Shown here piece by piece: positions 23,311 through 45,063 of a stretch of DNA of 57,031 nt. Where the stretch lies: positions 1-57,031 of the forward strand of contig JBAZZE010000004.1 of NCBI GenBank assembly GCA_041658955.1, written 5' to 3'. The notes beneath the pieces were generated by a model. The model had not been told where the DNA came from, did no database searches, and was given only the letters and a program-made list of their open reading frames with translations. Source of the stretch: Candidatus Shapirobacteria bacterium (GTDB lineage: Bacteria; Patescibacteriota; Microgenomatia; UBA12405). Within the stretch, counting starts at the first letter, position 1. Every line of letters begins with the position of its first letter. Both the position numbers and the translations under genes were made by a program.

Positions 23311-23327
23311 AATGCAATTATACTCAT

Positions 23328-24614: not shown

Positions 24615-24619
24615 AATTA

Positions 24620-25435
24620 TTATTCCGACGTCTTCTCGAGTTTTTCAATCAACTGCTCAAGCTCTTTAAGTAAGGGGTGACTCCATTGTTCTTTAGCCAT
24701 CTTTAGTACTTCCTTCTCGAACCAAACCTTTTTATCCTTGCCTCGATTAAACTTTGTCCAGAGTTTTGACCCTTCCTTTTCGTATTGTTCAAAGAAAGAA
24801 TGAAGATTAGCAATCTTATCAACCACACTCACCATAATTGCTTTCTCTCCACCTTTCCGCACACTCTCAACATACTTTGACTTTTTCTTTTCCCAATCGG
24901 TTGAATCTGACAATTCCTCATCATTTGATACTGCTTTAACGATCCTTAATACTTCCAGACCACAAGCATCTTCTACTTCATATTCCTGACATTTCGTGTC
25001 CTCAAGTAAGTCATGGCAATATCCGGCTGCAATCACTTCTGGTGGAAAATTGTTTTTCCAGAGCATGTGAGCAACTTCGAGTGGGTGTTCAACGTAGGGA
25101 TGACCATCTCCTTTGCGCTTTTGACCGGCATGAAACTTCTTCATTAGAAAAACGGCATTAAATACCTCTTGAGATAATAGTAAAGAGCTAACACGAAGTA
25201 ATTCTTTTCCTCCGGATAGCAACGCAAACTCATATCCGCCGTCTTCAGCGGTCTCAAGCCACTGTTTATACGACTTCATCTTCGGATTTTCATGGAAGAA
25301 TCCACCTAGTGCAGTATCCAACATCTTTTCAAGATCACCACCTTGAGCAAGGATGGTGTATTTTTCGTCATCGAAAATATCAGCTAGAGGGTAAGAGTCG
25401 AGTAGATCAATTTTTGCTAGTTTATACATAAACAT
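24620..25435 (-). CDS. HD-domain protein, RelA/SpoT hydrolase (Mesh1/SAH)-like, with N-terminal extension
   Basis: HAGQKRKGDGHPYVEHP, HDLLEDT, DKIANL, FNRG. Confidence 0.82.
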   Translation of the reverse strand: MFMYKLAKIDLLDSYPLADIFDDEKYTILAQGGDLEKMLDTALGGFFHENPKMKSYKQWLETAEDGGYEFALLSGGKELLRVSSLLLSQEVFNAVFLMKKFHAGQKRKGDGHPYVEHPLEVAHMLWKNNFPPEVIAAGYCHDLLEDTKCQEYEVEDACGLEVLRIVKAVSNDEELSDSTDWEKKKSKYVESVRKGGEKAIMVSVVDKIANLHSFFEQYEKEGSKLWTKFNRGKDKKVWFEKEVLKMAKEQWSHPLLKELEQLIEKLEKTSE

Positions 25436-25471
25436 CCTTTTAGACTTACTTATCGGCTATAATCGCATTAT

Positions 25472-26881
25472 ATGCTAACTAAATCAGATTTTCTTCTATT
25501 TCTAGAGGCTCCCATGCACTTGTGGGCAAAAGAGCATGGAAAGTTGCAGATAACGGCTCCATCAACCTATGACCAGCATCTCATGTTGCAAGGGTACGAG
25601 GTTGAAAAGGTTGCACATGACTACCTTACCCAATATGTACTTCCTAAATACAAAAATGCCGAACTGCTTTGGCAACAAACATATATGTCGGGTGAGTATC
25701 AATCTCGAGCCGATGGAATTATCCATGACCTAGACACAGATACTTATGATATCTACGAAATCAAGAGCTCCACTTCAGAGAAAAAAGATCATTTACCGGA
25801 TGCTGCTTTCCAATCTATTGTTATTGGAGACACTCTCACCATTGGCTCGATTCACTTAATACTCCTCAACGATGAGTATGTTCGAGGTGATTCTCTCGAT
25901 ATAGAACAACTATTTAAAGTACCCGATGTAACCAGTGATGTAGCTGAAATGACTCCAACTGTACAATCACAAATGAGAGAGGCGTTACGAATAGTAAAAA
26001 CGGATAGTTCCGATACTTTCCTCAATTGTCTTAATCCAAAGTGCTGTCCGTGCATGAATCTATGTCACCCCGATTTACCACAATACTCGATCTACAACAT
26101 TCCCAATCTCGCTCCGAAAAAACGCAGGCAGTTAGAAGAGGCTAAAACGATTGCAATCGAAGATATTGACCTAAATTTCACCTTTACACCCAAACAACAG
26201 AAGATCGTAGATGTCATGCAAAGCAAGACTCCATTTATCGACAAATCGACGATCCTAACGCTATTCCACGGGCTTACATACCCGTTATATTTCCTAGACT
26301 ATGAAACATACGACGAAGCCATGCCCCTCTACAAAGGCCATAAACCATACCAGAAAATGGTATTTCAGTATTCACTTCATATTGTTAGCAGTAATAGTGA
26401 AGAAATTCAGCACGAAGAGTATGTAGCTCTGGAGCCTGGCGATCCCGCAAGAGAGCTTGTAAGACATCTCCGAAGCCGTATTAGCGGAACTGGCTCAGTC
26501 ATAGTCTGGAATAAGGCGTTTGAAGGTGGACGAAACAAAGAAATGGCGGAGCTATACCCCGAATATAAAGATTTTCTACTAGATATAAACAATCGCATGT
26601 TCGATCTGATGGAAATTGTATCTAAGGGGTATTATCTCCACCCAGACTTTAAAGGCAGATGGTCGATTAAAAACGTATTGCCTGTTATGGTGCCAGAACT
26701 AAGCTATAACGATCTTGCAATCAATAAAGGTGATATGGCCATGATTGCATGGTGGGAGATGGTGCATAGTAACGACACGACTGCGAAACAAAGAACCGCC
26801 GACTCACTCCTTCAATACTGTGGATTAGATACACTAGCAATGGTGAAGATTTGGGAAAAGCTAAAAGAAATTATTGTCTAG
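25472..26881 (+). CDS. DUF2779-containing protein (RecB-like nuclease plus DEDD-like exonuclease fold)
   Basis: LTKSDF, ADGI...YEIKSST, YFLDYET, FQYSLH, VWNKAFE, SIKNVLP, YCGLDT. Confidence 0.8.
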   Translation: MLTKSDFLLFLEAPMHLWAKEHGKLQITAPSTYDQHLMLQGYEVEKVAHDYLTQYVLPKYKNAELLWQQTYMSGEYQSRADGIIHDLDTDTYDIYEIKSSTSEKKDHLPDAAFQSIVIGDTLTIGSIHLILLNDEYVRGDSLDIEQLFKVPDVTSDVAEMTPTVQSQMREALRIVKTDSSDTFLNCLNPKCCPCMNLCHPDLPQYSIYNIPNLAPKKRRQLEEAKTIAIEDIDLNFTFTPKQQKIVDVMQSKTPFIDKSTILTLFHGLTYPLYFLDYETYDEAMPLYKGHKPYQKMVFQYSLHIVSSNSEEIQHEEYVALEPGDPARELVRHLRSRISGTGSVIVWNKAFEGGRNKEMAELYPEYKDFLLDINNRMFDLMEIVSKGYYLHPDFKGRWSIKNVLPVMVPELSYNDLAINKGDMAMIAWWEMVHSNDTTAKQRTADSLLQYCGLDTLAMVKIWEKLKEIIV

Positions 26882-29522
26882 AACTCAATTCTTTAAAGCT
26901 CATGTTCGGTGATACTGCTGTGTGAGCTAAAATAATATATTTCCATGGTTTACCTCGATTTGCAGAATTAAACTTTGTAGCAGCTTCGCAGTATTTTTTA
27001 CCGGCTTCTGCTTTTTCTTGAACTTCTGAATCATCCATGTCGCGCTCTGCTTTAATTTCGACAAGGTAAATAATTTCTTTTGTTTCAACTACAAAATCAG
27101 GTTCGTATTGTAGTGAATTTCTCTTCCAATATAGCCAAAACTGAGTTTTTGCAGGTCGAAGCCATTTTAATACATCTCTGTCATCTTCGAGTATTGTGGC
27201 GAAATCCTTTTCTGCTTTTGAATCAAATTTATAAAGATTATGACTAGCTTTTTTAAATCCACCGAACACTTTGGTAGAGATCATGTTGGTTGGGGTGATA
27301 GTTTCTGTAAAATGATGAATTTTATCAACTGTATATTTTGAAAAATTATGTGGTTTTATTTCAGTGAATGGAAAAACGTCTGGATCTTTGTAAGCACCAG
27401 TTTCTATGTAAAAATTTTGTTGAAGTTGAGCATAAATAAATTGTCCGATCTCTCTCTTGTGGTAAAGCACAATATTCTTTAAATCTTCTTCACTTCGCCC
27501 ACTGCCTAGCTTTGCTAAAGCTTGGTCTACTAACTTGTGAAGTAGTACAGATTCACGGTCATAATCAACCTCGGGATAATTAACGAGCTCGTTCATAATA
27601 ATGTTGCTTGGGATATCTCGCTCAACACCGCTTTCAGTGCTTTGTAATACTTCACTTAAGTTAGTGCGTAAGGTGCGCCTTACGATCTCTTCTGAAACGG
27701 GCTGATAATTTAGACCTGTAACATCGAGTTGAAAATCATGGAATCCAGATTTAGTTTCATTGCTTTGTTGGACAAGAATTCTCGGAATTGGAATCGTTTT
27801 AGAAATAAGTTCCTCTACAACTGCTTCATATTCCTTTTCAGCAGCAACAACTATTTGATCTTTAAATAAATTCTGCTGAGGTGTATTTTCAATATGCTCC
27901 ACCATCTTTTTGATGGCTAGCTTTTGAACGTCGCTACTCTTTAACTCGTCGATGTTTTTTATCTGACTTCCGAGCGAACTAACTGCATCTACAATCATTT
28001 GTTGGGCATCAAGTTTAAACTCAGCAGTTCTCCGTTCTTCTTCATTTTGTAACTTCGCAATTTGTACGCGCTGTTCATTAAATGAAGATTGCATTGTAGA
28101 GGGTGAAGTTATAACTTCCTGATCGGCAGGAAGTGCGTTTGGATCAATTTCTACGATATTTTCTTTACGGATGATTGAATTTGGATCATTGGCTGCATCA
28201 ACGATAGACTGGAAACGATCATGGGCGATAATCGTCAACTTATCTACTTTCTCAACACCTGTTCGCGCCCCGTATGGTAAACGCAGTCCACGACCTATTG
28301 TTTGCTCCGTTAATATCTGAGAATTAGCAGCGCGGAGAGGAATAATCGTATATAGATTGGTGACATCCCAACCCTCCTTCAGCATGTTAACGTGAATAAC
28401 AATTTCGACAGTATTATCTTCTTTTTCCAATGCTAATAATTTTTGGACATTTTCTTCCTTCTCTTCACCCCGCTGATTCGAGTGTATTTCGATAACTTTT
28501 CCTTTGTATCTGCCCTCAAAGAATTGTTCAGACTCAATCACATCATGAATTTCTTTAGCGTGATCGGTATCTTTAGCAACGACAAGTACAAACGGACGAA
28601 CCAACCTATTGCCTGTGTCTCGAGAATAAATGTCGAGTGCGACCTTGGTGTCCTCATGAATACGAACCCCATCTTCCAATTTAATTAAATCAAGTTCTTT
28701 CGGGTCATTCTTGTATTGATCAGGGTTAAAGTTACGTCGTGTGGCAATGGCCGGTTCTTTTACAAATCCATCCTGTAAAGCCTTCGCCAATGGATAGTCG
28801 TATACAACATTCTTAAAAGTTACTCCATGAGAATCAATTGGGGTAGCAGTCAGCTCAAGTCCTAAAATTGGTTTTAGTTCATTTATTGCTTTTAATCCTG
28901 AATCAGCTCGGTAGTGATGTGATTCATCCATCAGAAGGACTAGGTCGGGCAATCCGGCAAGATAATTAAAGTATGATTCTCCCAAGTACTCAGAGAGTCT
29001 CTTAATTCGAGGCTCACGACCGCCGCGCACTTCTGAGTTAATCTTTGAAATGTTAAAGATATTGATACGTATAGTTTCACCTAGCATTTGTTGGGCATTC
29101 GCATATGTATCACCAGTCACAATGCGGGGGCCGAAGACTGCAAACTCAGAAATACCTTTAAACACATACTTAGGACTCTGTGGATTAGACAAGTCGTCAA
29201 TTAATTTGTTGTAGATTGTTAGGTTAGGCGCTAATACAAAATAATTTTGTATCCCCTTAGCTGAGTAGAGATAGGCGATAAACGCACCCATCAATCGAGT
29301 TTTACCTACACCCGTAGCAAGTGAAAAACATAATGAGGGGAATTCTCTCTCAAAATCAGAGCAAGTCGGATACATTGCACGAACCTTGGCTAGTTGGCTT
29401 ACTACATCCACTTCGTTTTTTAGTTCGAGAGTGTCAGTAATCTTTTGCAATATTTCCAAACTCTCTGCTTGCGGTTTACGCAGACTTAATCTATTTTTGA
29501 TTGTTTGAGCTTTACTGTTCAT
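26871..29522 (-). CDS. res: Type III restriction enzyme Res subunit
   Basis: LSLRKPQ, LATGVGKT, MDESHHY, LKEGWDV, QTIGRGLR, C-terminal YEPDFVV...VEIK. Confidence 0.9.
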   Translation of the reverse strand: MNSKAQTIKNRLSLRKPQAESLEILQKITDTLELKNEVDVVSQLAKVRAMYPTCSDFEREFPSLCFSLATGVGKTRLMGAFIAYLYSAKGIQNYFVLAPNLTIYNKLIDDLSNPQSPKYVFKGISEFAVFGPRIVTGDTYANAQQMLGETIRINIFNISKINSEVRGGREPRIKRLSEYLGESYFNYLAGLPDLVLLMDESHHYRADSGLKAINELKPILGLELTATPIDSHGVTFKNVVYDYPLAKALQDGFVKEPAIATRRNFNPDQYKNDPKELDLIKLEDGVRIHEDTKVALDIYSRDTGNRLVRPFVLVVAKDTDHAKEIHDVIESEQFFEGRYKGKVIEIHSNQRGEEKEENVQKLLALEKEDNTVEIVIHVNMLKEGWDVTNLYTIIPLRAANSQILTEQTIGRGLRLPYGARTGVEKVDKLTIIAHDRFQSIVDAANDPNSIIRKENIVEIDPNALPADQEVITSPSTMQSSFNEQRVQIAKLQNEEERRTAEFKLDAQQMIVDAVSSLGSQIKNIDELKSSDVQKLAIKKMVEHIENTPQQNLFKDQIVVAAEKEYEAVVEELISKTIPIPRILVQQSNETKSGFHDFQLDVTGLNYQPVSEEIVRRTLRTNLSEVLQSTESGVERDIPSNIIMNELVNYPEVDYDRESVLLHKLVDQALAKLGSGRSEEDLKNIVLYHKREIGQFIYAQLQQNFYIETGAYKDPDVFPFTEIKPHNFSKYTVDKIHHFTETITPTNMISTKVFGGFKKASHNLYKFDSKAEKDFATILEDDRDVLKWLRPAKTQFWLYWKRNSLQYEPDFVVETKEIIYLVEIKAERDMDDSEVQEKAEAGKKYCEAATKFNSANRGKPWKYIILAHTAVSPNMSFKELSSRQ

Positions 29523-31110
29523 CTTGTGCCTCGTTTGATTCTTCTGCTTCCTCCATAGTTGCTTTCACAATATTCAGATCATAGTTATCCTTAGCAAATT
29601 CACATTTTCCAAGAATCATTTGAGGAATCTTCTTAATAGTTACGTTTGAATAGTGACTTTCGCTACCTGGTGCAAAAGATTTTGCGCATATTAACAAGCT
29701 CTCATTTTCAGTCATTTGTGTATGAATAGCGTCGAGTTGTTCCTTTGTAACAAAGCCCGTAGTTACAAAAATATAATCTGTTTCTGTGGATCTCCCTTGT
29801 TTCCAGTAAATCGCTTCATCAGGAGAATACTTGAATCCTTCATGCTTGCACATTGCAGCGGCCAACATATTGGCATTGTATTGTTCATCGATTACAAAGT
29901 TTCCAAAGCTATCTTTACGGAGAAGCGAGGGGGCAAGATTATAAAACTTAAAACCACCTCCACCTTTCCAATCAAGAGTCTCTGATAGTGGTAAACCATC
30001 ATTACCATCAACTACTTTTTTGAGTCTTGGAAGACAGTGCGTAGAAGCATGTTCACCAAACTCGATACCAATATGTTTCCTACCCATCTTGTGTGCCACT
30101 GCTGACGTAGTACCAGAACCCAAAAAGCTATCTAATACCCAATCACCAGGCTTCGTACTTAATTCAAGAACTCTTTTAATCAATCGTTCGGGCTTAGGTG
30201 TATCAAATGGATCAGTATTAAAAAGTATCTTCATCTCACGTTTAGCTTCTTGGTTGTCTCCGACCTCGACACGATACCATATAGTTTTAGAAACCAAGCC
30301 TTCTTGAACCTCTGACAGAAATAGCTTTAATCTTGGAACGTTGCTCCCGCTTTTACCAAAATACACGCGATTATCCTTAACTAATTCCTCAAATTTTAAT
30401 TTAGAAATTGACCAACAACGGCTTTGAGTTGGATTAACAACCTTTCCACTTGGAGTTGTTATTGGATAGTCAGTTGATGCATTATAAGTTTTAACAGTCA
30501 TATCAGAAGATGCCCAGATTCCCCTTGGATCGTTGTCGGGATTTTTAAACCGTTTATCAGTATCAGAGGTCCGAGGGAGCATTTGGGGTCGCCATATTTC
30601 TTTATTATTAGCGTAAACGAGGACGTGATCGTGGCTATCAGATAACCATTTAGCATCATTCTGTGGAGAAAATTTCTTTTCCCATATAACATTTGCAACA
30701 AAGTTATTTCTTCCAAATACTTCATCACAAAGAACTTTTAAATAGTGGCTCTCGTCATCATCAATTGAAATCCAGATACTACCCTCAGTTGGGTGAAGTA
30801 ACGTTTTTAGAATCTCAAGTCTTGGTTTAATTAAACTAAGCCATGTAGAATGTTCTAAGTTATCGTCATAGTGTTCAAAAGCACTACCGGTGTTATAAGG
30901 CGGATCGATATAGATACACTTAATTAGTCCAGCATAGTCTTGTTCTAAAGCTTTTAAGGCTAATAAATTATCACCATAAATAAGCATGTTTTCGGAGTTT
31001 GGATCACCATGCGATTTATTTGGATCTTCAATAAGGATTCGAGGCTCAAGTTTAATCTCCTGATCTTTTCCGATCCATGTCAGCTCTAATTTTTGCTTCT
31101 TGTCAGTCAT
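29512..31110 (-). CDS. mod: Type III Mod N6-adenine DNA methyltransferase
   Basis: KLELTWIGK, GDNL, YIDPPYNTG, FDTPKPE, VLDSFLGSGTT. Confidence 0.92.
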   Translation of the reverse strand: MTDKKQKLELTWIGKDQEIKLEPRILIEDPNKSHGDPNSENMLIYGDNLLALKALEQDYAGLIKCIYIDPPYNTGSAFEHYDDNLEHSTWLSLIKPRLEILKTLLHPTEGSIWISIDDDESHYLKVLCDEVFGRNNFVANVIWEKKFSPQNDAKWLSDSHDHVLVYANNKEIWRPQMLPRTSDTDKRFKNPDNDPRGIWASSDMTVKTYNASTDYPITTPSGKVVNPTQSRCWSISKLKFEELVKDNRVYFGKSGSNVPRLKLFLSEVQEGLVSKTIWYRVEVGDNQEAKREMKILFNTDPFDTPKPERLIKRVLELSTKPGDWVLDSFLGSGTTSAVAHKMGRKHIGIEFGEHASTHCLPRLKKVVDGNDGLPLSETLDWKGGGGFKFYNLAPSLLRKDSFGNFVIDEQYNANMLAAAMCKHEGFKYSPDEAIYWKQGRSTETDYIFVTTGFVTKEQLDAIHTQMTENESLLICAKSFAPGSESHYSNVTIKKIPQMILGKCEFAKDNYDLNIVKATMEEAEESNEAQDEQ

Positions 31111-31114
31111 AGTC

Positions 31115-34100
31115 TTATATTATCTTCCATTTAATCGTAAACAAGGTCTCAAGTTTTGCTTGTTGAGCTAGTCTTGCCTCGACAGACTCGAGTAATTTTT
31201 CTTTCTTTAATTCTACATCATCTTGAGTCTCAAATAACCGTCTTCTCATGTCATTACGCTTCTTTTCCCAATCCTTAATTTCTCGTTGTGCTTTTAATTT
31301 CTCATCAAGATTGATTATTTTCTTTGCATTTGTCTTAGCAGTCTTTATATCAATATCAAGCTTTCTCAGATCGATTTCTAGACCTTTTTTAACGTCTTCT
31401 GCCCAATTATCGAGCTTATCTACCTCGTGATCAAAGAAGCTACCATTGCGCTCGGCAATCTGAGTAGAAACGATCTTTATGTATTTATCTTCCAACTCAT
31501 TCAATTTGCCCTTATTCTCATCTGAAATTTGTTCTGGGGTGGTAGAGTCTGCGGATAATTGGAATATTTTCTTCATAATTTCGGGTTCTATAACATCTCC
31601 GGAGTCCGTAATAGCAGAGAGGATGATATTATCCTCGGCTTCAAAAGATTCGACAGTAAAGTTGGATATTTTTAACATTCCCCCCATTCCGATAAATGGC
31701 TGAAGGACTGAAATGATTGTTTGGTTATCTGAATAATTAAAAATAATTTCTGTTTCGTCTGACGGCTTTGACTTGATATCAGCTAATATTCGTTGAGCAA
31801 GCGAATGACCGGGGCGATAAACGTGTGCATCTTCAATATTTTTGCCAATCTTATATGGACCAGCATCAATTTCTTCGTTGGGGAAAGGGTTATTTTTCAA
31901 TACGAATGAATATTCATGTTCAGCAAATTCTGCATTGTCACCAAGATAATACCTCGTTGTATCCCACAGCCACCGGTTATACGTGTCGAGGTACATCGTG
32001 CTTTCTCGCAGATTGAGTTTAAGTTTTTCATGAACTTCTGCATCGAAGTTCTCAAGGAGAGTTTGGCGAGTTTCGGATAGATTATTCTGAATACTGTCAT
32101 CCATTTCTTCCTGTAGTTTATCGAAAGCAGTATTAATTTCTTCCGTCGTTCGACAATCCTGATAGATTGCAGCGATTCGCTTTTCAAAATCAACACCTGA
32201 CTCGATATTACCCAAGACCTCATCACTTGCTCCAAACACGCCTTTAAATAGCTTGAATTTTTGATCTAGTAGGTCGTACACGCGACTATCCGCTGCATTT
32301 TTACGGTTCACAAAGTTAATTACCACAACGTCATGCTTCTGACCATATCGATGACATCTTCCAATCCGTTGTTCAATACGCTGAGGATTCCATGGCAAGT
32401 CATAATTAATGACCAGAGAACAAAATTGTAAATTCACACCTTCCGCGGCAGCCTCTGTTGCAATCATTATGTCTGCTTCGTCATGGAAGTAATCGATGAG
32501 AGCTGACCTCATGTCTGCGGTCTTTGACCCCGTGAGCTTATCAGTATCTTTATTTCTCTCAAGCCAATTCTTGTAAATTTCTTTTGATTTTGGATCGTTA
32601 TTTGATCCGTTGAACAAAACAATTTTATCCTTGTATCCATTTTCCGGAAGAAGGGTTTCGGATAAATACTTTTGGGTAATAGTCGATTCAGTAAAGATGA
32701 TTGCTTTTTGCTTTGCTCCGAGATCTTTCGTCATCTCAAAACCTTTTTTCAAGGCAACAAGAAGTGCATCTCCTTTTGAATTGGTAAAAATGGCTTTTGC
32801 TAAACCTCTAAATTTCTCCAAGTCTTTCTTTTCCTGTTCCATGAGTGGAATATCGTCTTTGGTATAGACCTTAGATTTCTTGGTTGAATCTTCATCCTCG
32901 TCACCCTCCTCATCGTCTATCCATTCCTCGGACATTTCCTCAAATCCCTCAAAGTTTTGGGCAAGATCTGTGGTGTCAAACTCAGGTGGCATTGTTTCAA
33001 GCTTTTTCTTGGTTTCATCAATAACTAGACCGAGTTTAATTACGAGATTATTTAGGGTACTAGCAATGGCAAACGAAGATGATGCCAGAAGTTTACGCAA
33101 AATAAGCGTCATCAGTTGGCGTTGACTTGAGGGAAGTGCATACAGCGCTGGTCGTTGTAAATATTCCGACATACCGTCATACAATTCAATTTCTTGTTTT
33201 GTTGGTATGTAGTCTTGGGTAATTGGTTTACGTTCAGTGTATTTAATGTATTCCAACACTTGTCTACGAAGCGTACGAATACATACTGGCTTTAATCGAT
33301 TCCGCAGGTCAGTAAATAGAAGTTGTTTTGGATCGAGTATTTCATCTTCATCTGGTAATCCCATTTCTCTGGTAACAACACCTTTTCCAACACCTGATTC
33401 AGTAGACCATTTAATATCTTTTATGTGACTTGTAAGCTCCTGTTCTCTTGGAGCATGGGAATAGTTAGCTTTAAAACTTTTTAGATCACCAAATACATGA
33501 TCATCAATAATGCTCACTAAACCATAAAGTTCTAAGAGCGAATTTTGTAGAGGAGTAGCAGTCAATAGAATCTTTGGTACATCTGAAAGTGAGTACTTTA
33601 TTTCACGAGCTATTTTATTACTGGTCTTGTAAACATTTCTTAAGCGGTGAGCCTCATCGATAACCGATAAATCCCATTTGGTTTGTTTGACATACGGAGC
33701 TTTGCTTCTCGCAAAATGATATGAACAAATAATAATCTTATCTTCTTGATTAAATGGGTTCAGGTTGCCGTCTTTTATAGCCTGGTTAAATGATTTAGCT
33801 TCTAATATTACTGAGGGCAAGAAAAACTTTTCCTGCAATTCCATGTTCCATTGCTTTCGTAGTGCTGCGGGAACAATCAAAAGTATTTTTCGTTTTCTCT
33901 CTGCCCATTTTTGAGATAGGACGAGGCCAGCTTCAATAGTTTTGCCAAGTCCTACTTCATCAGCTAATATGGCACCCATAGATAGCGGTGACTTAAAAGC
34001 AAATAAAGCTGCTTCAATTTGATGAGGATTTAGGTCTACTTGAGCATTTGAGAGGGTTGAAGATAATTTTTCTAAACTATCGGATGAACATCTCTTGGTT

Positions 34101-34168
34101 AGTTCATATGCAAAGTATTTGGCGTGATATGGAGTTATTTTTTGCATAGAATGATCTGATTTTATCAC
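31115..34168 (-). CDS. SNF2-family helicase co-transcribed with mod-res
   Basis: LADEVGLGKT, IDEAHRL, TATPLQN, ATEAAAEGVNL, QRIGRCHRYGQ; C-terminal coiled coil. Confidence 0.9.
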   Translation of the reverse strand: MIKSDHSMQKITPYHAKYFAYELTKRCSSDSLEKLSSTLSNAQVDLNPHQIEAALFAFKSPLSMGAILADEVGLGKTIEAGLVLSQKWAERKRKILLIVPAALRKQWNMELQEKFFLPSVILEAKSFNQAIKDGNLNPFNQEDKIIICSYHFARSKAPYVKQTKWDLSVIDEAHRLRNVYKTSNKIAREIKYSLSDVPKILLTATPLQNSLLELYGLVSIIDDHVFGDLKSFKANYSHAPREQELTSHIKDIKWSTESGVGKGVVTREMGLPDEDEILDPKQLLFTDLRNRLKPVCIRTLRRQVLEYIKYTERKPITQDYIPTKQEIELYDGMSEYLQRPALYALPSSQRQLMTLILRKLLASSSFAIASTLNNLVIKLGLVIDETKKKLETMPPEFDTTDLAQNFEGFEEMSEEWIDDEEGDEDEDSTKKSKVYTKDDIPLMEQEKKDLEKFRGLAKAIFTNSKGDALLVALKKGFEMTKDLGAKQKAIIFTESTITQKYLSETLLPENGYKDKIVLFNGSNNDPKSKEIYKNWLERNKDTDKLTGSKTADMRSALIDYFHDEADIMIATEAAAEGVNLQFCSLVINYDLPWNPQRIEQRIGRCHRYGQKHDVVVINFVNRKNAADSRVYDLLDQKFKLFKGVFGASDEVLGNIESGVDFEKRIAAIYQDCRTTEEINTAFDKLQEEMDDSIQNNLSETRQTLLENFDAEVHEKLKLNLRESTMYLDTYNRWLWDTTRYYLGDNAEFAEHEYSFVLKNNPFPNEEIDAGPYKIGKNIEDAHVYRPGHSLAQRILADIKSKPSDETEIIFNYSDNQTIISVLQPFIGMGGMLKISNFTVESFEAEDNIILSAITDSGDVIEPEIMKKIFQLSADSTTPEQISDENKGKLNELEDKYIKIVSTQIAERNGSFFDHEVDKLDNWAEDVKKGLEIDLRKLDIDIKTAKTNAKKIINLDEKLKAQREIKDWEKKRNDMRRRLFETQDDVELKKEKLLESVEARLAQQAKLETLFTIKWKII

Positions 34169-34237
34169 TTTTTATCTTGAATCGTACTCAACTATATTGA
34201 ACATGTAGTATTTTAATTGTTGCAACGCGCTAACCCA

Positions 34238-34266
34238 TTGACTTTGCCTCTGGACTGTATCATAAT
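34238..34266 (+). promoter_or_regulatory. Sigma70 promoter of the T4SS operon
   Basis: TTGACT-17 nt-CATAAT. Confidence 0.7.
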
Positions 34267-34287
34267 CCCCTCAAGTTCAGAAGAGCT

Positions 34288-34310
34288 GCCCCTCCGATAG
34301 GGGCTTTTTT
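34288..34310 (+). terminator. Intrinsic terminator-like hairpin in the operon leader
   Basis: GCCCCT-CCGAT-AGGGGC followed by TTTTTT. Confidence 0.7.
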
Positions 34311-34364
34311 GTAGCCAGACCTGCCAAACTATTAACAAATTATTTATTTGTAAGGAGGTGGGTT

Positions 34365-34700
34365 ATGAACAAAAAATTAATCACATTATCTTCACTAGCC
34401 ATAACCGCGCTAGCATTTGCATCTCCGGCCTACGCTGCAACAGGTGACGTAGCCAACATCGAAACATTCATCAAGAGTGTCATTCTCATTCTCGTTAAAG
34501 TCGCAGGTCTCGTATCTGCTGGATTCTTTGTCTGGGGTGGATTTGGATATATTACTAGCTCGGGCAATCCAGAGATGCTCGACCGCTCCAAGAAAACTAT
34601 TTTGTACTCTGCAATCGGACTGGCAGTAGTACTAGGTGCATTTGTCTTGACCAACATCGTATCTGACTTGGCGACCGGTGCATTTGGTGCCACGCAGTAA
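34365..34700 (+). CDS. VirB2/TrbC-like pilin
   Basis: Signal peptide ending AYA, two hydrophobic segments, GGFGYITSSGNPE...SKKTI; SD AAGGAGGTG. Confidence 0.8.
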   Translation: MNKKLITLSSLAITALAFASPAYAATGDVANIETFIKSVILILVKVAGLVSAGFFVWGGFGYITSSGNPEMLDRSKKTILYSAIGLAVVLGAFVLTNIVSDLATGAFGATQ

Positions 34701-34728
34701 ATACAAAATATGCACAACATAAAACATT

Positions 34729-36006
34729 ATGCGAAAACTGATGCTCTTGGCCGGTATCTTACTGACTTCGTTATTCTTCCCTCATTCTGTCTTGGCCGCA
34801 TCACCAATTCCTGAGATTAGCTCGTTTACTTCTGATACGCTCAAGATAATTACTTTGATTGCTTCAGCTTCTGCCGTATTTTTTCTACTACGCGGTGGAT
34901 ACCTCTACATCACATCAACTGGTAGACCAGAGGCACTAGAAGAAGCCAAGAAAACAATTCGTAATGCTCTGCTTGGGCTCGTGCTTGTCATCGCGGCCAA
35001 TGGGATCGTTTCACTTCTACAAGGAGCACTGGTAGGCAATTCTGATAGTTCTACAATTACCAACCTTCCTCTTACTCAAATTGAGAGTGTAGCGCCTAAC
35101 GAGGGTTTAACCCAAGTTCTCATCGATGCTGTTAATGGCTTTATTCAAAACATTGTGGAAAGTTCCACAAAGCCAGTCGTGGATGGGATCATGACACTTC
35201 TTACAACAACTCCTGAATTACTGACAAACGCCACTATCGTCAAGTTCTGGCTCATCATGCTTGGTATAACCGACACACTCTTTGTACTGGTTGTGGCACT
35301 CTTGGGACTTCAATTTATGAGTGCATCCACATTCGGGTTTGAAGAAATCGAGTTTAAACACCTCCTACCCAGAATTGGGTTAGCGTTCCTCGGAACGAAT
35401 GTATCGTTATTTCTGGCGGATTACGCCGTAAAAACATGTAACGTACTTGTGGCAGGTGTAATATCTGCAACCGGAGGACTCAACCATGCATGGGTCACGA
35501 ACGCAATTACTCTACAAAATATTACAACTGGTACAGCTCCGCTCATCACTTTGATTTTTCTACTTCTGTTCTTGATCGTAGCGATTGTGCTTCTACTTAT
35601 GTATATCAGCCGTTTGATTGTTATAGCTCTTGGAGCTGTACTCTCTCCATTCATATTCTTACTTTGGACACTCCCTAAGACCGCCGACTTTGCTGAAATG
35701 GCAATTAAGAGCTATCTAGTCTCAGTATTTATGATTTTTATTCATGTCGTAACTATTCAACTGGCCGGATCATTCCTGGCACTACCTGAGCAAACCAATA
35801 ACTCACTAATCTCAATTGCGGTAGCCATTGGACTTTTACTCACGTTGCTTAAGATCCCAAGCTTCTTGATGCAACTAATTTTATTTTCTCGAAGTGTGGG
35901 AACGGTCAAACACATGGGAAGTCAGATTATTAACGTCATGAGTACTGATACAGCTCACAAAGGTACAGTTGGCTCCAAGACACCTAGAAAGACCTTAAAC
36001 GTATGA
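34729..36006 (+). CDS. Pilin-like domain fused to a VirB6/TrbL-like polytopic membrane protein
   Basis: N-terminal GGYLYITSTGRPE...AKKTI is paralogous to the upstream pilin; about 6 further TM helices with LSPFIF, LPKT. Confidence 0.72.
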   Translation: MRKLMLLAGILLTSLFFPHSVLAASPIPEISSFTSDTLKIITLIASASAVFFLLRGGYLYITSTGRPEALEEAKKTIRNALLGLVLVIAANGIVSLLQGALVGNSDSSTITNLPLTQIESVAPNEGLTQVLIDAVNGFIQNIVESSTKPVVDGIMTLLTTTPELLTNATIVKFWLIMLGITDTLFVLVVALLGLQFMSASTFGFEEIEFKHLLPRIGLAFLGTNVSLFLADYAVKTCNVLVAGVISATGGLNHAWVTNAITLQNITTGTAPLITLIFLLLFLIVAIVLLLMYISRLIVIALGAVLSPFIFLLWTLPKTADFAEMAIKSYLVSVFMIFIHVVTIQLAGSFLALPEQTNNSLISIAVAIGLLLTLLKIPSFLMQLILFSRSVGTVKHMGSQIINVMSTDTAHKGTVGSKTPRKTLNV

Positions 36007-36473
36007 GAACAACAATCATTCCAGCACAAATCACGACAGTTGAAGACAAAATCGCAGGATCTCTCAATTTCGCACAGATACTACTTCTGATGTTGCCTGT
36101 TCTCTGGGGGACACTGGTATATGCGATATTTATTCCAACGATGAAGCTAGCTCCGTACAAGGTAAGCTTGGTGCTATTGGTTAGTGCTACCTCACTTATT
36201 TTGGCGATCCGAGTTAAAGATAAAATCATTGCGGAATGGATTGGAATATTACTTCGCTACAAATTACGTCCGAAATTCTATATCTTCAATAAAAATGACA
36301 TAACTGAGCGGTTAGTTGATTTGCCATTTGAATCTGTAGCAAACCACAAAAAGGCAGTAGCAAAAACAACCAAGAGGCTCACTAAAGAACTGTCGGTCAA
36401 GGAGCTTATCAAATTTGAGCAGGCAATGGCATCAAAGAATCTGGCTGTATCGTTTCGGTACGGGAGGAAATGA
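36003..36473 (+). CDS. PrgI-family (VirB3-like) protein
   Basis: IPAQITTVEDKIAGSLNFAQ, two TM helices, RYKLRPKFY. Confidence 0.8.
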   Translation: MRTTIIPAQITTVEDKIAGSLNFAQILLLMLPVLWGTLVYAIFIPTMKLAPYKVSLVLLVSATSLILAIRVKDKIIAEWIGILLRYKLRPKFYIFNKNDITERLVDLPFESVANHKKAVAKTTKRLTKELSVKELIKFEQAMASKNLAVSFRYGRK

Positions 36474-37087
36474 CTATGACACTATTCAATAAATCTCAAT
36501 CATCGCGACAGCAAATACAAATCAAAAAAGTCTTGGATAATGTTCTGGTTTTGCCTAACCAGGAATATCGGTTGATTTTGGAAACCTCATCCATAAACTT
36601 CGAGCTCAAGAGTGAAGAGGAACAGGACGTCATGATCGATAGTTTCCAAAACTTTCTAAATGCCTTACCTTGCCAGATTCAAATCTTGGTACGAGTTCGT
36701 GAGATTGATATCGACAAATATGCTGAAGATGTGGCTAGATCAAAAGATAAAGAGAAAGATCCGATCTATCGCAAGCAAATCGAGGGATATAGTGCTTTTG
36801 TTAAAAAACTTGTATCTGGTAATAGCATTCTCTCAAGACGATTTTATATTGTCTTGCCGTATCACCACCCAGACCGGCACGAAGATTGGAAAGTAATCAA
36901 AGAACATTTAAATCTAAATCGCGATATTGTCGTCAAAGGCTTGGAGCGGATGCAGATGAAAGCTAAAACTCTCTCTAGTATCGAGATTATTAACTTGTTC
37001 TACAGTTTTTATAACCCTGAATCGGTTAAGACCCAGGCGGTTACAAAAGAAGCATTATCGGCATTATTCAAACACAATTATGTTTAA
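36470..37087 (+). CDS. VirB4-associated accessory T4SS protein
   Basis: SSINFELKSEEEQD...FLNAL, RRFYIVLP; between PrgI and VirB4. Confidence 0.68.
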   Translation: MTMTLFNKSQSSRQQIQIKKVLDNVLVLPNQEYRLILETSSINFELKSEEEQDVMIDSFQNFLNALPCQIQILVRVREIDIDKYAEDVARSKDKEKDPIYRKQIEGYSAFVKKLVSGNSILSRRFYIVLPYHHPDRHEDWKVIKEHLNLNRDIVVKGLERMQMKAKTLSSIEIINLFYSFYNPESVKTQAVTKEALSALFKHNYV

Positions 37088-38867
37088 TATCACCAAAATC
37101 AAACCTATTCGTGATTGGCAAAAGCGCCAAAAGAAAAAACGCTTAGCGCACCAAGCTATCAACGTCACGTTTGGCGAACAAGACCAACTCGACCTTATTT
37201 CCTATGCCGGACTTAAAGAGGAATCGAGCTATTTACAGATAAACGATACTTTTGTCCGAACACTCTTTGTTTCGGGATACCCATATGTTGCCTCTACTGG
37301 CTGGCTTTCAATGCTGGTGAACTTTAACCACAATATTGACATTAATTATCACGTTGAACAGATTGATCCTCTCATAGCTCTGCCCAAGCTTAACCGCAAA
37401 ATCACAGAACTTGAGTCCACCAAGCGCACCATGCTCAAAGAAGGACGGGTTATCGGAAGTGAAATCACTGATCCGCTTGAATCTGCCATGGAACTCAAAG
37501 ATAAAATTCAGCGGGGCATGGAAAAACTGTTCCAAGTTTCCATATATATGACTGTCACCGCTGAGAGCTTGGTCGAACTGGATAAAGTGACGAAGCTGTT
37601 AGAAACGGTTATGCAGACAAGGCTTTTCTATATAAAACCCGCGACTTTCCAACAAGTCGAAGCCCTGCAATCAGTCTTACCTCGAGGTGAAAATAAGCTG
37701 GCTCAAAAGAGAAACTTGGATAGCTCAAGTGCTGCGCTTACATTCCCATTTGTGTCCTCCGAACTGGTACAGGAGTCCGGAATCCTCTATGGCATCAACA
37801 AATCGAATAATTCTCTGGTTATCATTGACCGCTACAGTCTAAACAATGCCAACTCCATTATTTTTGCCCAGTCTGGTTCAGGCAAGAGCTTTACTGCCAA
37901 AGTAGAGATCCTGCGTCACCTCATGCAAGGTACAAAAGTCATAGTCATTGATCCAGAACGCGAATATAAGCAACTGGCTAAAAGCGTCAACGGAACCTAT
38001 ATCAAACTATCAAGCACCTCGAAAGAAAAGATTAACCCATTTGATTACTCCCAAACCTCCGTCACGGGTGAGAATAGCCTCGCTGAGCACATACAAGACC
38101 TCACAGAGCTCATATCGCTCATGGTTGGCAGTCTGACTTCGGAAGAGCGGGCAACCGTTGATCGCGCGCTCCTGCAAACATATAAAAATGCGGGCATGAG
38201 TAAACGCAAGAATGGTAGGAAACCAGCGAAAATTGTCTATCCAGTCCTCAAGGATTTCTATAAGGAACTAAAATCAATGAAGCACAAAGACCTCTGTAAC
38301 AGACTTGAGCGGTTTGTAAAAGGCTCACTTGGTGGTGTTTTTGATTCTCAGACAAATATCGAGATGAATAATCGCCTTGTAGTGTTTGATATCAAGGATC
38401 TCAATGAATCACTTCGTCAGATCATGATGATGGTGGTTGCCAATTTCGTCCATAGTGAGGTCAAACAGAACCCACAAAAAAGAATGCTGGTCATTGATGA
38501 GGGTTGGATTCTACTACAGGAGCCAGAAAGCGCCCGATTTATCTCAGGACTTGTCAGGCGCGCCAGAAAATACTATCTGGGGGTCACAATCATTACTCAA
38601 CAAGCAAATGACTTCCTGTCACAGGAGTACGGGAAGGCTATTGCTAGCCAATCTTCGCTTCGTATTCTCATGCGCCAAGATACTACCACCATCAAAAAAG
38701 TGGCGGAAGAATTCCATCTTTCGGCCTTTGAACAGCATTACCTATTAACGTGTGAACGCGGTGAGGCTCTCATCATTGCTGATCAAAACCATGTAGCTGT
38801 AAAAGTGGTTGCCTCCGAAGAAGAGCACCCACTCCTCACAACCGATCCTCGGGAGATCTACATCTGA
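37080..38867 (+). CDS. virB4: VirB4-like conjugation ATPase
   Basis: FAQSGSGKSF, IDPEREY, FDIKDL, LVIDEGW, RRARKY, ITQQ. Confidence 0.9.
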   Translation: MFNITKIKPIRDWQKRQKKKRLAHQAINVTFGEQDQLDLISYAGLKEESSYLQINDTFVRTLFVSGYPYVASTGWLSMLVNFNHNIDINYHVEQIDPLIALPKLNRKITELESTKRTMLKEGRVIGSEITDPLESAMELKDKIQRGMEKLFQVSIYMTVTAESLVELDKVTKLLETVMQTRLFYIKPATFQQVEALQSVLPRGENKLAQKRNLDSSSAALTFPFVSSELVQESGILYGINKSNNSLVIIDRYSLNNANSIIFAQSGSGKSFTAKVEILRHLMQGTKVIVIDPEREYKQLAKSVNGTYIKLSSTSKEKINPFDYSQTSVTGENSLAEHIQDLTELISLMVGSLTSEERATVDRALLQTYKNAGMSKRKNGRKPAKIVYPVLKDFYKELKSMKHKDLCNRLERFVKGSLGGVFDSQTNIEMNNRLVVFDIKDLNESLRQIMMMVVANFVHSEVKQNPQKRMLVIDEGWILLQEPESARFISGLVRRARKYYLGVTIITQQANDFLSQEYGKAIASQSSLRILMRQDTTTIKKVAEEFHLSAFEQHYLLTCERGEALIIADQNHVAVKVVASEEEHPLLTTDPREIYI

Positions 38868-38868
38868 C

Positions 38869-39477
38869 ATGAATCCAAAACTGTTCCTAACCCTCTGGTC
38901 GTTTCGCAAGGAACTAAAATTCGTATTCCTAGCATTCCTCACTATCCTCATGGTGCCGGTTATCGGGGTCATCTTACTCACCAGAGTAGGTATCAACATC
39001 ATTTCCGATAAATTAGTTGAAAGTAACCCAGTCACACAGTCAATTGAGATCAAAGATCCAACGTCCGGAGAAGTTGTTAAATCCATATCTCCACAGGTCG
39101 CTTGGCCTGTTCACGGGGTAATAACACTAGAATTTGGCCAATCCAGTCTCTATCAAGTCTTTCACACTGGTATTGATATTGCGAACCCCTCAGGGCAAAT
39201 CGGTGATCTTATCAACCCCGCAATGGATGGCGAAGTCATGTATGCTGGAGAAATATTCTGGGGGTATGGAAAGCACGTTATCATTGACCACGGTAACAAT
39301 ATAACGAGCATCTATGGCCACTTAGATAAGATTTTCGTCTACAAAGGCCAGAAAGTAACTATTACAGACACCATTGGGAAAGAGGGACAAACTGGATGGG
39401 CTACCGGACCACACTTACACTTTGAAACGAGGATATATGGGATTCCGGTTAATCCAAGAGTATTTTTAGGCGAATGA
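38869..39477 (+). CDS. M23-family peptidase (cell-wall hydrolase)
   Basis: N-terminal TM, FHTGIDIA, YGHL, TGPHLHFE; start MNPKLF. Confidence 0.9.
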   Translation: MNPKLFLTLWSFRKELKFVFLAFLTILMVPVIGVILLTRVGINIISDKLVESNPVTQSIEIKDPTSGEVVKSISPQVAWPVHGVITLEFGQSSLYQVFHTGIDIANPSGQIGDLINPAMDGEVMYAGEIFWGYGKHVIIDHGNNITSIYGHLDKIFVYKGQKVTITDTIGKEGQTGWATGPHLHFETRIYGIPVNPRVFLGE

Positions 39478-43821: not shown

Positions 43822-44114
43822 CATACCAAGTATTTGTTGATGATAACTTTCACTTCATGGACGAGAGTGAGAGGTACTTGCATGGTGAATTTGACACCTG
43901 TGAGGAAGCGATTGTTGCCTGCAAGAAGATTGTTGATGACTGCCTGAAAAGCTCGTATCAACCAAAAATGAGTGCAGACCAGTTATATGAATCGTATATT
44001 GGGTTTGGTGATGATCCATTCATCAAATGTGATGATAAATCATGTGACTTTCATGCGAGGGATTATGCAAAATCACGGTGCCAAGCAATTATCGACGAGA
44101 AAATAACTAGTTAA
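43818..44114 (+). CDS. Small acidic hypothetical protein (98 aa)
   Basis: ATGA-coupled to the NERD gene; YQVFVDDNFHFMDESERY. Confidence 0.65.
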   Translation: MTYQVFVDDNFHFMDESERYLHGEFDTCEEAIVACKKIVDDCLKSSYQPKMSADQLYESYIGFGDDPFIKCDDKSCDFHARDYAKSRCQAIIDEKITS

Positions 44115-44341
44115 TTGGATAATTTGTCTTCAGATTTCAAGTCACGAGCTTTAATACCCATAAAGGTATCTGAAGTTTTAAGAAGCTCGGCGAACTCTGC
44201 AACATTTTCTTTGTGGTCAGGGTCAAGAACATCGAGAATTTTTTGTACATCACCCACGTTGTTTACATCCAAATTGTGATCGTGTGCATATTGGAGCGCA
44301 TCGATGACTAGTTCTGACTTTTTGGTTACTGTATCGTTCAT
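44111..44341 (-). CDS. Small hypothetical protein (76 aa)
   Basis: ATGA overlap with the PLD stop; SD AAGGAGG. Confidence 0.65.
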   Translation of the reverse strand: MNDTVTKKSELVIDALQYAHDHNLDVNNVGDVQKILDVLDPDHKENVAEFAELLKTSDTFMGIKARDLKSEDKLSN

Positions 44342-44859
44342 ATTTCCTCCTTAGTATAACAAATATTTTGTATTTCTCTGACATGATCATATTTTAGAAA
44401 GGAAAACAGGTCTTTAGCCTTCTTCTCATCATCCTCGCGCTCCATAAGTTCACGGCTATTCTTGTGTGACAAAATGTTAAGACTGCCTTTCCAGACGATC
44501 CTACGGTCAATCATGGCTAATTTCCTATGGTGAGTCTTGCTCATAAATACTTGTACGCCTATTTTTTCAAAAAACTGGATTCCTGCCTCAGCTTGTTCGG
44601 ACATGAACGAATCGTGCTCTTCGGGATGCCGAGTTATGATAAACACAGCTATTTTGCGCTCCATAAGTGACTCAAAGACGTGCTTCAGATTTCGCAGCTT
44701 TGGAACGGTGATAAATGGACTTTCAATAATTACTTCATGTTTTGCCTGAGCCAAATCACGCTCGAATTGATAGTAAAAGGAGTTTTCATCTGCTAAAATA
44801 ACGTTTGCAGTCTGGCGAGAGTCAGATTGAGAGCCCATATAGGACGAATTGTAACTCAT
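44338..44859 (-). CDS. Single-HKD phospholipase D-family nuclease
   Basis: IESPFIT, HRKLAMID (HxKxxxxD), WKGSLN; no signal peptide. Confidence 0.85.
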   Translation of the reverse strand: MSYNSSYMGSQSDSRQTANVILADENSFYYQFERDLAQAKHEVIIESPFITVPKLRNLKHVFESLMERKIAVFIITRHPEEHDSFMSEQAEAGIQFFEKIGVQVFMSKTHHRKLAMIDRRIVWKGSLNILSHKNSRELMEREDDEKKAKDLFSFLKYDHVREIQNICYTKEEI

Positions 44860-44969
44860 AGCTTTTTCTCCTTCTTAAAGTGAGCAATAGCGATGATAAG
44901 ACTAGCTTTCTCTTTTGGATTAATCGAGGAGGTTAGATAGGTTCCAACATCGTCCCAGATGGTGCACAT
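44856..44969 (-). other. Orphan 3' end of the integrase gene (attR side): (M)CTIWDDVGTYLTSSINPKEKASLIIAIAHFKKEKKL*
   Basis: Open frame 44969-44856; its TGA overlaps the PLD ATG; in frame with integrase codon C543 across the GCAC core. Confidence 0.75.
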
Positions 44970-44983: not shown

Positions 44984-45054
44984 TGCCCCGTCGTCTAATG
45001 GTAGGACAGCAGCCTTTGGAGCTGTTTACTGTGGTTCGAATCCATGCGGGGCAA
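44984..45054 (+). tRNA. tRNA-Gln(TTG)
   Basis: TGCCCCG/CGGGGCA stem, GCAGC-CTTTGGA-GCTGT, GGTTCGAATCC. Confidence 0.95.
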
Positions 45055-45063
45055 CACTAAAGT

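Follow-up and report, generated by a model that had tools for sequence, protein, structure and literature searches.

A putative integrative conjugative element of Candidatus Shapirobacteria in which the serine integrase gene is divided by its own attachment site and a predicted nuclease gene is coupled to the severed tail

The window analysed here, a stretch of 57,031 nt to which all coordinates refer, belongs to contig JBAZZE010000004.1 of the Candidatus Shapirobacteria bacterium assembly GCA_041658955.1 and carries an island of ~31.3 kb (13638-44967, as delimited by the comparison of junctions). Judged from its gene content and boundaries, this island is an integrative conjugative element (ICE), placed at the 3′ end of a tRNA-Leu(GAG) gene by a large serine recombinase, within whose own gene the attachment site lies. 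Integration would sever the last 35 codons of the integrase gene and strand them at the far end of the element, together with a coupled gene for a predicted nuclease of the phospholipase D (PLD) family and a gene for a protein of 76 amino acids (aa), p76. In the circle, a single unit would be rebuilt, comprising a promoter-like site with its operators, a 71-aa protein, the integrase in a 578-aa form, the nuclease and p76. As an architecture, this operon assembled only in the circle is well supported by sequence comparison and is conserved across many elements of the Candidate Phyla Radiation (CPR); a role of recombination in turning on the nuclease is no more than plausible. The features that carry this reading are the following:

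13454..15262, minus strand: integrase in its integrated form, 602 aa, a large serine recombinase (Pfam)
13555..13639, plus strand: tRNA-Leu(GAG), the integration target, whose 3′ end is the host arm of attL (ARAGORN, Rfam)
13634..13637, no strand: attL copy of the common core GCAC, containing the crossover (comparison of attL, attR and attP-type junctions)
15243..15458, minus strand: 71-aa protein, first gene of the integrase operon (reading frames)
15476..15558, no strand: three copies of the palindrome AACTATAGTT (repeats D1, I1 and I2), over or beside the promoter-like site
15494..15522, minus strand: promoter-like site preceding the 71-aa and integrase genes (consensus match only)
44111..44341, minus strand: p76 gene, 76 aa, whose ATG overlaps the PLD stop
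44338..44859, minus strand: PLD gene, 173 aa, single-HKD PLD family (Pfam PLDc_2)
44856..44963, minus strand: integrase tail, 35 codons (TIWDD...KKEKKL) and a TGA overlapping the PLD ATG
44964..44967, no strand: attR copy of the common core GCAC, where the homology among right ends starts (G/TGCACC)
44984..45055, plus strand: tRNA-Gln(UUG), the first host gene past attR, 16 nt from the core (ARAGORN, Rfam)

The integrase contains, in this order, the Pfam domains PF00239 Resolvase (9e-18), PF07508 Recombinase (4e-11) and PF13408 Zn_ribbon_recom (8e-7), that is, the succession of resolvase catalytic, recombinase and zinc-ribbon domains of a large serine recombinase, and is matched by the NCBIfam models XisF and CcrB as distant relatives. 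Residues 1-543 (15262 to 13634) are owned by the element, and the last 59 residues of the 602-aa product are an antisense translation of tRNA-Leu and host DNA. Homologues were collected as the 120 best matches to the reconstructed protein, which are 59-99% identical to it and all derive from CPR/Patescibacteria assemblies, and in their alignment conservation ends at the motif ...KSS[VLI]WC. The fate of the protein past this motif was counted in the 114 aligned homologues that reach it: 74 read [GRP][RG][EQ]DLNLH..., which corresponds to the acceptor stem and T-arm of a tRNA read backwards, and a further 34 end at most two residues after WC. P0086 alone continues as WC-TIWDETRTYSTSRIDSKEKTALLEAIEYFTKEV. 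This tail is homologous to an orphan frame at the right end of the island in the window, (M)C-TIWDDVGTYLTSSINPKEKASLIIAIAHFKKEKKL (44859-44963), which is open back to 44975, reads ..DL MCTIWDDVGTYLTSSINPKEKASLIIAIAHFKKEKKL and terminates in a TGA (44858-44856) overlapping the PLD ATG (44859-44857). A pattern scan of metagenome contigs furthermore yielded three additional in-frame fusions of the form ...KSS[LI]WCTIWDD.... On account of the homology to the fused tail of P0086 and of these in-frame fusions, the short frame at 44859-44966 is identified as the true C-terminus of the large serine integrase encoded at 13634-15262, as had been proposed in an initial annotation made from the sequence of the window.

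The position of the crossover was deduced from a comparison of attL junctions (the window and L006), attP-type junctions (L001 and L089-L091), the attR of the window and ~27 further right ends, the latter drawn from the contexts of PLD homologues and from a GTDB genome scan with the PLD alignment. The attL, attR and attP-type junctions share a common core of 4 bp, GCAC, and nothing longer, while the left flanks of the right ends are unrelated and homology starts exactly at G/TGCACC ATCTGGGACGATGTT. A very short core (about 2-4 bp) and ends lacking long direct repeats are the pattern of serine integrases, and no long direct repeats flanking the island were found, as expected for a serine recombinase. 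The crossover therefore lies in GCAC, at 13634-13637 and 44964-44967, rather than at the breakpoints 13639/13640 and 44969/44970 of the initial annotation, and the junction once read as ...V/MCTIWDD is corrected to ...KSSVWC/TIWDD.... A register on the CAT shared by attL and attR, which puts head and tail out of frame, was considered and rejected, as both P0086 and the junction series give GCAC, in frame. The tryptophan and cysteine codons of the motif (codons 542-543) are the reverse complement of the ...GCACCA end of the tRNA, and the encoded CCA end of tRNA-Leu (the bases after 13637) comes from the element. By this comparison, the integrase family recombines inside its own gene, at these W-C codons. 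The frame crosses attP as originally suggested, and the circular-form integrase comprises 578 aa, of which 543 codons (15262 to 13634) precede and 35 codons (44963 to 44859) follow the junction. The reconstructed attP junction reads AAAAGTTCTGTATGGTGCACCATCTGGGACGATGTTGG, and a 12-bp palindrome, ATGGTGCACCAT, was read directly in the joined site; the expected empty attB site is ...CTCTCGTCGGCAC + ATTAAGTCTTAGACACTGCCCC.

The orphan frame appears to possess a start codon of its own, an ATG at 44969-44967, the AT of which comes from the host and the G from the core. As the crossover lies in the GCAC core, this ATG is a chance product of the junction and does not belong to the element. Other insertions have TTG, GTG, TGG, AAG or CAG at this codon, and five have the stop codon TAG, so that there the tail is readable only in the joined form. 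Selection on the tail was assessed in 14 tails of equal length of the type found in the window (type A). Pairwise codon differences were synonymous and non-synonymous in a ratio of 730:581 in the frame of the tail, compared to 234:1063 and 99:1176 in the two shifted frames, and the variable sites number 15, 8 and 24 by codon position. The tail is, by this measure, real coding sequence under purifying selection. As it contains no internal methionine and is preceded by a stop in some insertions, selection would act only on the joined form, be it the circle or a tandem junction. The Shine-Dalgarno sequence of PLD falls within this stretch as well, as does the arm of attP contributed by the element. 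The native tail is basic (pI 9.2) and ends in ...AHFKKEKKL, and in the integrated state the integrase either lacks a tail or carries a random one of up to ~110 residues, translated from antisense tRNA sequence. The exchange of tails yields two integrase isoforms, which may differ in stability or directionality.

Two further genes follow the tail on the minus strand, namely PLD (44859 to 44338, 173 aa) and p76 (44341 to 44111, 76 aa), and both of the ATGA overlaps described in the initial annotation, between tail and PLD (44856-44859) and between PLD and p76 (44338-44341), were recovered. Whether homologous elements keep PLD at the attachment-site end with such ATGA coupling had been named there as a check, and this was addressed in 80 related PLD loci, 59 of which could be classed by tail motif into type A (19 loci), type B (19 loci) and type C (21 loci). 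The position of PLD relative to the attachment site is conserved in all type-A loci examined, which number ~22 when tblastn hits to the tail are counted, and 18 of the 19 classed by motif show the ATGA overlap between the stop of the tail and the start of PLD. Type B tails (...AEDDSYFEPL...LMEAYQ...) and type C tails (...W..F.SL...KL..LGFTYYNGKV...), read upstream of position about 8001 in loci L030-L088, are associated with distant PLD homologues. Their frames begin after variable flanks, and their stops nearly always overlap the PLD start by 4 or 8 nt. In 58/59 of the motif-classed loci, the end of the tail frame either overlaps the start of PLD or directly adjoins it. In most of the 80 loci, PLD and a p76-like gene follow a tail of one of these three types, the p76-related gene encoding a small helical protein with the motif L..L...DPE.A..E.A. 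The type-C frame of L058 is the C-terminus of a different serine recombinase, and across Microgenomates and Paceibacteria it is the same nuclease gene that adjoins the three families of recombinase tail. As PLD and the p76-like gene are kept after tails in elements with differing recombinases, comparison of the loci identifies the nuclease pair as a module of the backbone rather than cargo. In two recombinase lineages at least, and probably in three, this module is the first feature to follow the tail, and the block of tail, PLD and p76 forms the conserved right terminus of this family of elements.

The PLD protein carries one perfect HKD motif, HRKLAMIDRRIVWKGSLN, of the form HxK(x)4D(x)6GSxN, and residues H111, K113, D118, G125, S126 and N128 are invariant in the 41 homologues compared. 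The top Foldseek matches of its AlphaFold (AF2) model (pLDDT 82) are 4ggk, 6ehi and 1byr (E 2.6e-9 to 7.9e-9), and the fold is most like that of the single-HKD nucleases Zucchini/PLD6, NucT and Nuc (1BYR), with target-normalised TM-scores of ~0.7 against Nuc and NucT and ~0.6 against Zucchini. The fold search also listed TrmBL2 and Pss, and the PLD fold includes lipid enzymes and DNA-binding proteins. A sequence search against the PDB was uninformative. On the basis of the motif and the modelled fold, the product is a predicted HKD nuclease of the Nuc/NucT/Zucchini-like type. No obvious signal peptide was seen by eye, and a strong Shine-Dalgarno sequence, AAGGAG, is located 8 nt before the PLD ATG. 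The p76 protein is acidic (pI 4.7), is predicted to form three helices, and gave no family match in Pfam, NCBIfam or PADLOC and no fold match; our best guess, which is speculation, is that it is a partner or an inhibitor of the nuclease.

PADLOC profiles for the PLD domains of Mokosh MkoC (2e-12) and DISARM DrmC (1e-4) match the PLD protein. Its assignment as the DrmC of a DISARM system within the island was considered and rejected, since the DrmD-like gene lies 10 kb off among type III restriction-modification genes; the adjoining drmA, drmB and drmD or methylase genes that define DISARM do not accompany PLD. Given this distance of 10 kb, and as PLD is also kept in elements without the DrmD-like cluster, it is regarded as standing outside that cluster.

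Once the element is integrated, its promoter-like site is directed outward into tRNA-Leu, as are the 71-aa gene and the head of the integrase gene, and the tail, PLD and p76 lie 31 kb away at the far end and face inward. The promoter-like site reported in the initial annotation is present at 15522 to 15494 as TTGACA-17-TATTCT, TG-extended, with 10/12 matches to the sigma-70 consensus, which may not be that of CPR. The end of the 71-aa gene overlaps the integrase start by 20 nt, and equivalent genes for 61-71-aa proteins overlap the integrase start in L001, L006 and L092. The 71-aa protein matched neither Pfam nor NCBIfam models and is regarded as a candidate for a directionality factor or a regulator. 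Copies of the AACTATAGTT palindrome lie within repeats of 16-25 nt and adjoin a divergent helix-turn-helix (HTH) gene, and are likely operators for the regulator it encodes. With the promoter-like site lying among these copies and beside a gene of the Cro/CI type, the whole unit is probably repressible.

Upstream of the integrated tail there are 16 nt of host DNA, rather than the 17-nt spacer counted initially, followed by the divergent tRNA-Gln, and the host genes past attR run in the opposite direction. A scan of the PLD strand, with a consensus that may not be that of CPR, revealed no sigma-70-like promoter from the junction up to the ATG, and no terminator-like site was found between the junction and PLD. 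The 1.5-kb right-end region contains one promoter-like site, compared to 4.4 expected from shuffled sequence. With an outward-directed promoter-like site at one end and genes of matching orientation at the other, which only circularisation would bring together, the element reproduces the geometry known from Tn916. In the joined form, the genes for the 71-aa protein, integrase, PLD and p76 are contiguous with overlapping stops and starts, and the unit of four genes downstream of one promoter-like site proposed for the circle in the initial annotation is thus borne out as an architecture.

Junctions in which a recombinase directly precedes the tail and PLD were also encountered in other loci. 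L003 and L004 were considered as circles on account of this layout and rejected, as L004 and L006 lie on one 127-kb contig and form a tandem array of two conjugative elements at a single tRNA. The order on this contig is tRNA, integrase P0012, type IV secretion genes, and PLD and tail, followed by a 515-aa recombinase, a second coupling protein and a relaxase. The upstream 515-aa recombinase is 26% identical to the window integrase, is part of the second element, and terminates within the tail DNA, which it reads in a different frame (...SCAPSGTMLEPI and a stop; L004 8380-10001); its family apparently uses the same crossover position. L005 carries an identical PLD with an unrelated flank. The same succession of recombinase, tail and PLD is observed in L013 and L053, which are probably tandem arrays. 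L001, which encodes P0086, is decayed, its coupling protein being truncated by an insertion sequence (rve transposase). At 10001-12800 of this locus, a 90-aa gene and a PIN_3 gene, resembling a toxin-antitoxin pair, come after the integrase with its native tail. Beyond them, a second copy of the tail (12494-12598) and a PLD fragment (12625-12777) are found, and it looks as if a tail-bearing cassette had been inserted at the attachment site. L089-L091 are remnants and L093 is a scarred junction. P0047 was likewise rejected as a circle candidate, as it represents a scarred junction without PLD.

The assignment of the island as an ICE is based on the integrase, a relaxase candidate, a coupling protein, a VirB4-type ATPase and mating-pore genes, all located inside the defined att boundaries. 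The matches comprise a TrwB/TraG-like coupling protein, Replic_Relax, TrbC and T4SS_pilin, P-loop_TraG/AAA_10 and an M23 peptidase. The remaining features of the element are as follows:

15651..15875, plus strand: Cro/CI-type HTH regulator, divergent from the integrase operon (Pfam HTH_3, 2.9e-12)
15941..39477, no strand: body of the conjugative element, from the coupling protein to the type IV secretion block
15941-18532: coupling protein, within the element body
18672-19445: Replic_Relax (PF13814) protein, within the element body
21220-23310: GmrSD, defence cargo
23328-24614: trypsin-like protease, defence cargo
26871-34168: type III restriction enzyme and methylase with a DrmD-like SNF2 helicase, defence cargo
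34365-39477: type IV secretion block, with TrbC, pilins, VirB4-like ATPase and M23 peptidase
39503-44114: further cargo, namely a 1185-aa HEAT-repeat protein, a NERD-domain protein and a 98-aa protein

On the minus strand, attR is followed by the tail, PLD and p76 and by variable cargo (98-aa, NERD and 1185-aa HEAT proteins), then by the M23 peptidase, VirB4-like ATPase, pilins and TrbC and the defence cargo, and finally by Replic_Relax, the coupling protein, the HTH regulator, the 71-aa protein, the integrase head and attL. The reading frames of the backbone are all intact. This backbone is colinear with those of L002, L004/L005 and L009-L017, and an HTH regulator occupies the equivalent position in L001, L006, L092 and L093. 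The cargo, which in the window element is mostly defence-like, varies among the related elements and includes a cyclic-oligonucleotide-based antiphage signalling system (CBASS) in L004, a diversity-generating retroelement in L006 and copper resistance in L002.

A 99%-identity copy of the integrase is found in another assembly, on contig CAZVTT010000004.1, where it is also located at tRNA-Leu(GAG) and the tail-PLD end lies ~33.6 kb from the integrase. The neighbouring genes differ, from which it follows that the element moved recently, and insertion polymorphism between genomes was seen. tRNA-Leu(GAG) forms attL in L006 (11624-11708) and L092 (4624-4708), giving three genomes together with that of the window. 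Other members of the integrase family run into other tRNAs, judged by their differing antisense tails. Across 14-38 kb, GC skew has the opposite sign to that of the flanks, being positive in the host flanks and negative over most of the island, and becomes positive again at ~39 kb, where the island genes change strand. An Rfam scan of the window recovered tRNAs only. The insertion parts tRNA-Gln from tRNA-Val and tRNA-Leu (13391-13639), and the spacing without the insertion would be ~16-17 nt. As only 16 nt of host sequence are left in front of tRNA-Gln, transcription of the gene must emerge from the right end of the element, antisense to the tail and PLD; a scan of 43700-45200 revealed no plus-strand promoter-like site for this gene. 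The GTDB records that carry the element (L010-L012, L018, L022 and others) are often titled 'uncultured Gammaproteobacteria' or 'Pseudomonadales'; these titles look like placeholders or errors, as the gene content and closest relatives are those of Patescibacteria.

We suggest a model in which the circular form exists in the donor after excision and in the recipient before integration, where the integrase would have to be expressed from the circle in order for the element to integrate. PLD and p76 would then be transcribed mainly from the integrase promoter, and hence mainly in the extrachromosomal phase, and integration would automatically cut them off from this promoter. Their role, on which we can only speculate, may be a transient function of the circular phase, such as establishment, counter-defence on entry, or stabilising or processing of the circle. 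The structural part of this model we hold with high confidence, and the full model, with a split integrase and a nuclease pair expressed mainly from the circle, we consider reasonably probable. More tentative, and in our estimation rather doubtful, is its extension, according to which the recombination state would be written into the integrase itself: the native 35-residue tail, the nuclease and p76 would be produced from the circle only, the swap of tails, perhaps together with the 71-aa protein, would serve as a directionality or timing switch, and the function of the nuclease pair would be limited to the circular phase.

A number of observations weigh against expression from the circle. A free circular attP form was not found, the metagenome scan for the attP pattern giving only chromosomal remnants, while two scans of viral contigs for the attP junction gave nothing and a protein search with the tail recovered only eight small right-end reading frames. 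As every fused integrase-tail junction lies in a chromosomal remnant or a tandem array, the circle is deduced rather than observed. Tandem arrays also let an upstream recombinase gene read into PLD while integrated, and expression would therefore not be strictly limited to the circle. The presumed silence of PLD in the integrated state is suggested by a consensus scan, and the promoter rules of CPR may differ. As PLD has a strong Shine-Dalgarno sequence of its own, it would not depend strictly on translational coupling, and its position could reflect a conserved order of backbone genes. These last points are united in the alternative that PLD and p76 are ordinary backbone genes with their own promoter in or near the tail, so that their position would be incidental and recombination would have no regulatory role. 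The AAGGAG sequence 8 nt before the PLD ATG fits this explanation, under which a non-canonical CPR promoter would escape the consensus scan, and conservation of PLD position is to be expected anyway where the gene order of the whole backbone is conserved. However, the PLD strand lacks a sigma-70-like site between the junction and the ATG, and the close apposition of tail stop and PLD start in 58/59 loci, despite differing recombinases, points to selection for one translated unit. The tail, moreover, is selected coding sequence that can be read only from the integrase side. We consider an independent promoter unlikely, if still deserving serious attention.

Less probable again is the proposal that PLD and p76 form a self-contained toxin-antitoxin pair or defence cargo, for example the DrmC of a set of DISARM-like genes, unrelated to the life cycle of the element. 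The PADLOC matches to the PLD domains of MkoC and DrmC, the DrmD-like SNF2 helicase in the island and the PIN-domain pair which holds the equivalent post-tail position in L001 are all compatible with such a role. Yet the pair is kept at the right end alongside quite different cargo (CBASS in L004, copper resistance in L002), behaves as backbone and is separated by 10 kb from the DrmD-like gene, and p76 matches no known defence or toxin-antitoxin family, which together render this proposal improbable. Decay of many related junctions (L001, L089-L091, L093 and L058) might finally suggest that the element is fixed, its split integrase unable to excise, and the arrangement a fossil without present function. 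The intact backbone reading frames of the window, the 99%-identity integrase copy in a different genome context and the purifying selection on the tail speak against this, and we regard it as very improbable. On balance, we favour the model in which the nuclease pair is joined to the integrase operon in the circle and expressed mainly from it.

Several of the components and principles described here have counterparts in known systems. The predicted nuclease resembles Nuc of pKM101 (1BYR), NucT of Helicobacter pylori and Zucchini/PLD6 in size, in its single HxK(x)4D(x)6GSxN motif and in fold, and Nuc is also carried by a conjugative element. Identity to these proteins is, however, only 18-22%, and the gene in the window has a partner gene dedicated to it, which encodes a small acidic protein.

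Expression that depends on excision and runs across the joint has been documented for Tn916 (PMC11658703). As in that element, an outward promoter lies at one end and co-oriented target genes without an evident promoter at the other, and circularisation joins them. In contrast to Tn916, the genes joined are two small ones, for the nuclease and p76, rather than transfer machinery, the joint falls within a reading frame, so that translation as well as transcription would be rebuilt, the recombinase is of the serine type and targets a tRNA gene, and no terminator/antiterminator layer was identified. State-dependent promoter switching of int is known in ICEKp1, ICEclc and ICEEc1 (PMC13023037), where integration next to a tRNA likewise changes the links between promoters and genes and a working transcription unit arises where the ends are ligated in the circle. 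There it is int that changes its promoter, whereas the integrase described here would keep its promoter and exchange its 3′ end and downstream genes. The case is cleanly defined at the sequence level, with site-specific recombination rebuilding both a reading frame and an operon, and the predicted state-gated expression and isoforms are directly testable. If the extension of the model is true, a tail and nuclease available only from the circle would represent a general design of CPR conjugative elements.

In the mycobacteriophages of clusters G, N and P, attP lies inside the repressor gene, resulting in integration-dependent immunity (PMC9262239). The two systems have in common an attP within a coding gene at the 3′ end of a tRNA and a C-terminus that is replaced upon integration, giving two state-specific isoforms. 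In the phages, however, the repressor is cut, by a tyrosine enzyme, and an ssrA-like degradation tag is removed, while in the element described here the serine integrase itself is cut, and its tail (...HFKKEKKL), which has no -LAA-like end, is not ssrA-like. The mycobacteriophage literature further states that serine integrases do not use tRNA genes (PMC9262239), to which the serine integrases described here, targeting tRNA 3′ ends, run contrary. With their short defined sites in conserved tRNA genes, these enzymes may also be possible genome-engineering tools.

The elements also bear on a 2025 survey, according to which the type IV secretion systems of Patescibacteria mostly lack relaxases and have been co-opted for non-conjugative roles (PMC12102498), as type IV secretion genes are found here within tRNA-integrated, insertion-polymorphic elements together with an integrase, a coupling protein and Replic_Relax. 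If the extension of the model is true, the type IV secretion clusters of Patescibacteria, or many of them, would belong to mobile conjugative elements and not to domesticated machinery.

The closest parallel for the division of the integrase gene is provided by the 'suicidal' integrases of the archaeal SSV type, in which attP lies inside int, a property which a review describes as exclusive to Archaea (PMC8371274). In both cases recombination takes place inside the gene of the enzyme that catalyses it, with a tRNA as the target, and integration leaves one part of this gene at each end of the element. The SSV-type enzymes are, however, tyrosine recombinases (R...KxxR...Y) which are split near the N-terminus and inactivated, whereas the bacterial enzyme is a serine recombinase which lacks this tyrosine signature and would lose only its last 35 residues, past all recognised domains. 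The relation is hence one of analogy and not of membership, and the integrases of these elements constitute a bacterial recombinase family with a property that the review gives to Archaea alone. A limited search of the literature recovered no paper on such CPR conjugative elements or on attP-spanning serine integrases. The initial annotation had regarded the arrangement as an undescribed system; its principle is preceded by Tn916, ICEKp1, integration-dependent immunity and the SSV integrases, whereas the variant itself, a serine recombinase gene that is deprived of its last 35 codons by integration at the 3′ end of a tRNA, with a nuclease coupled to the severed tail, appears to be new.

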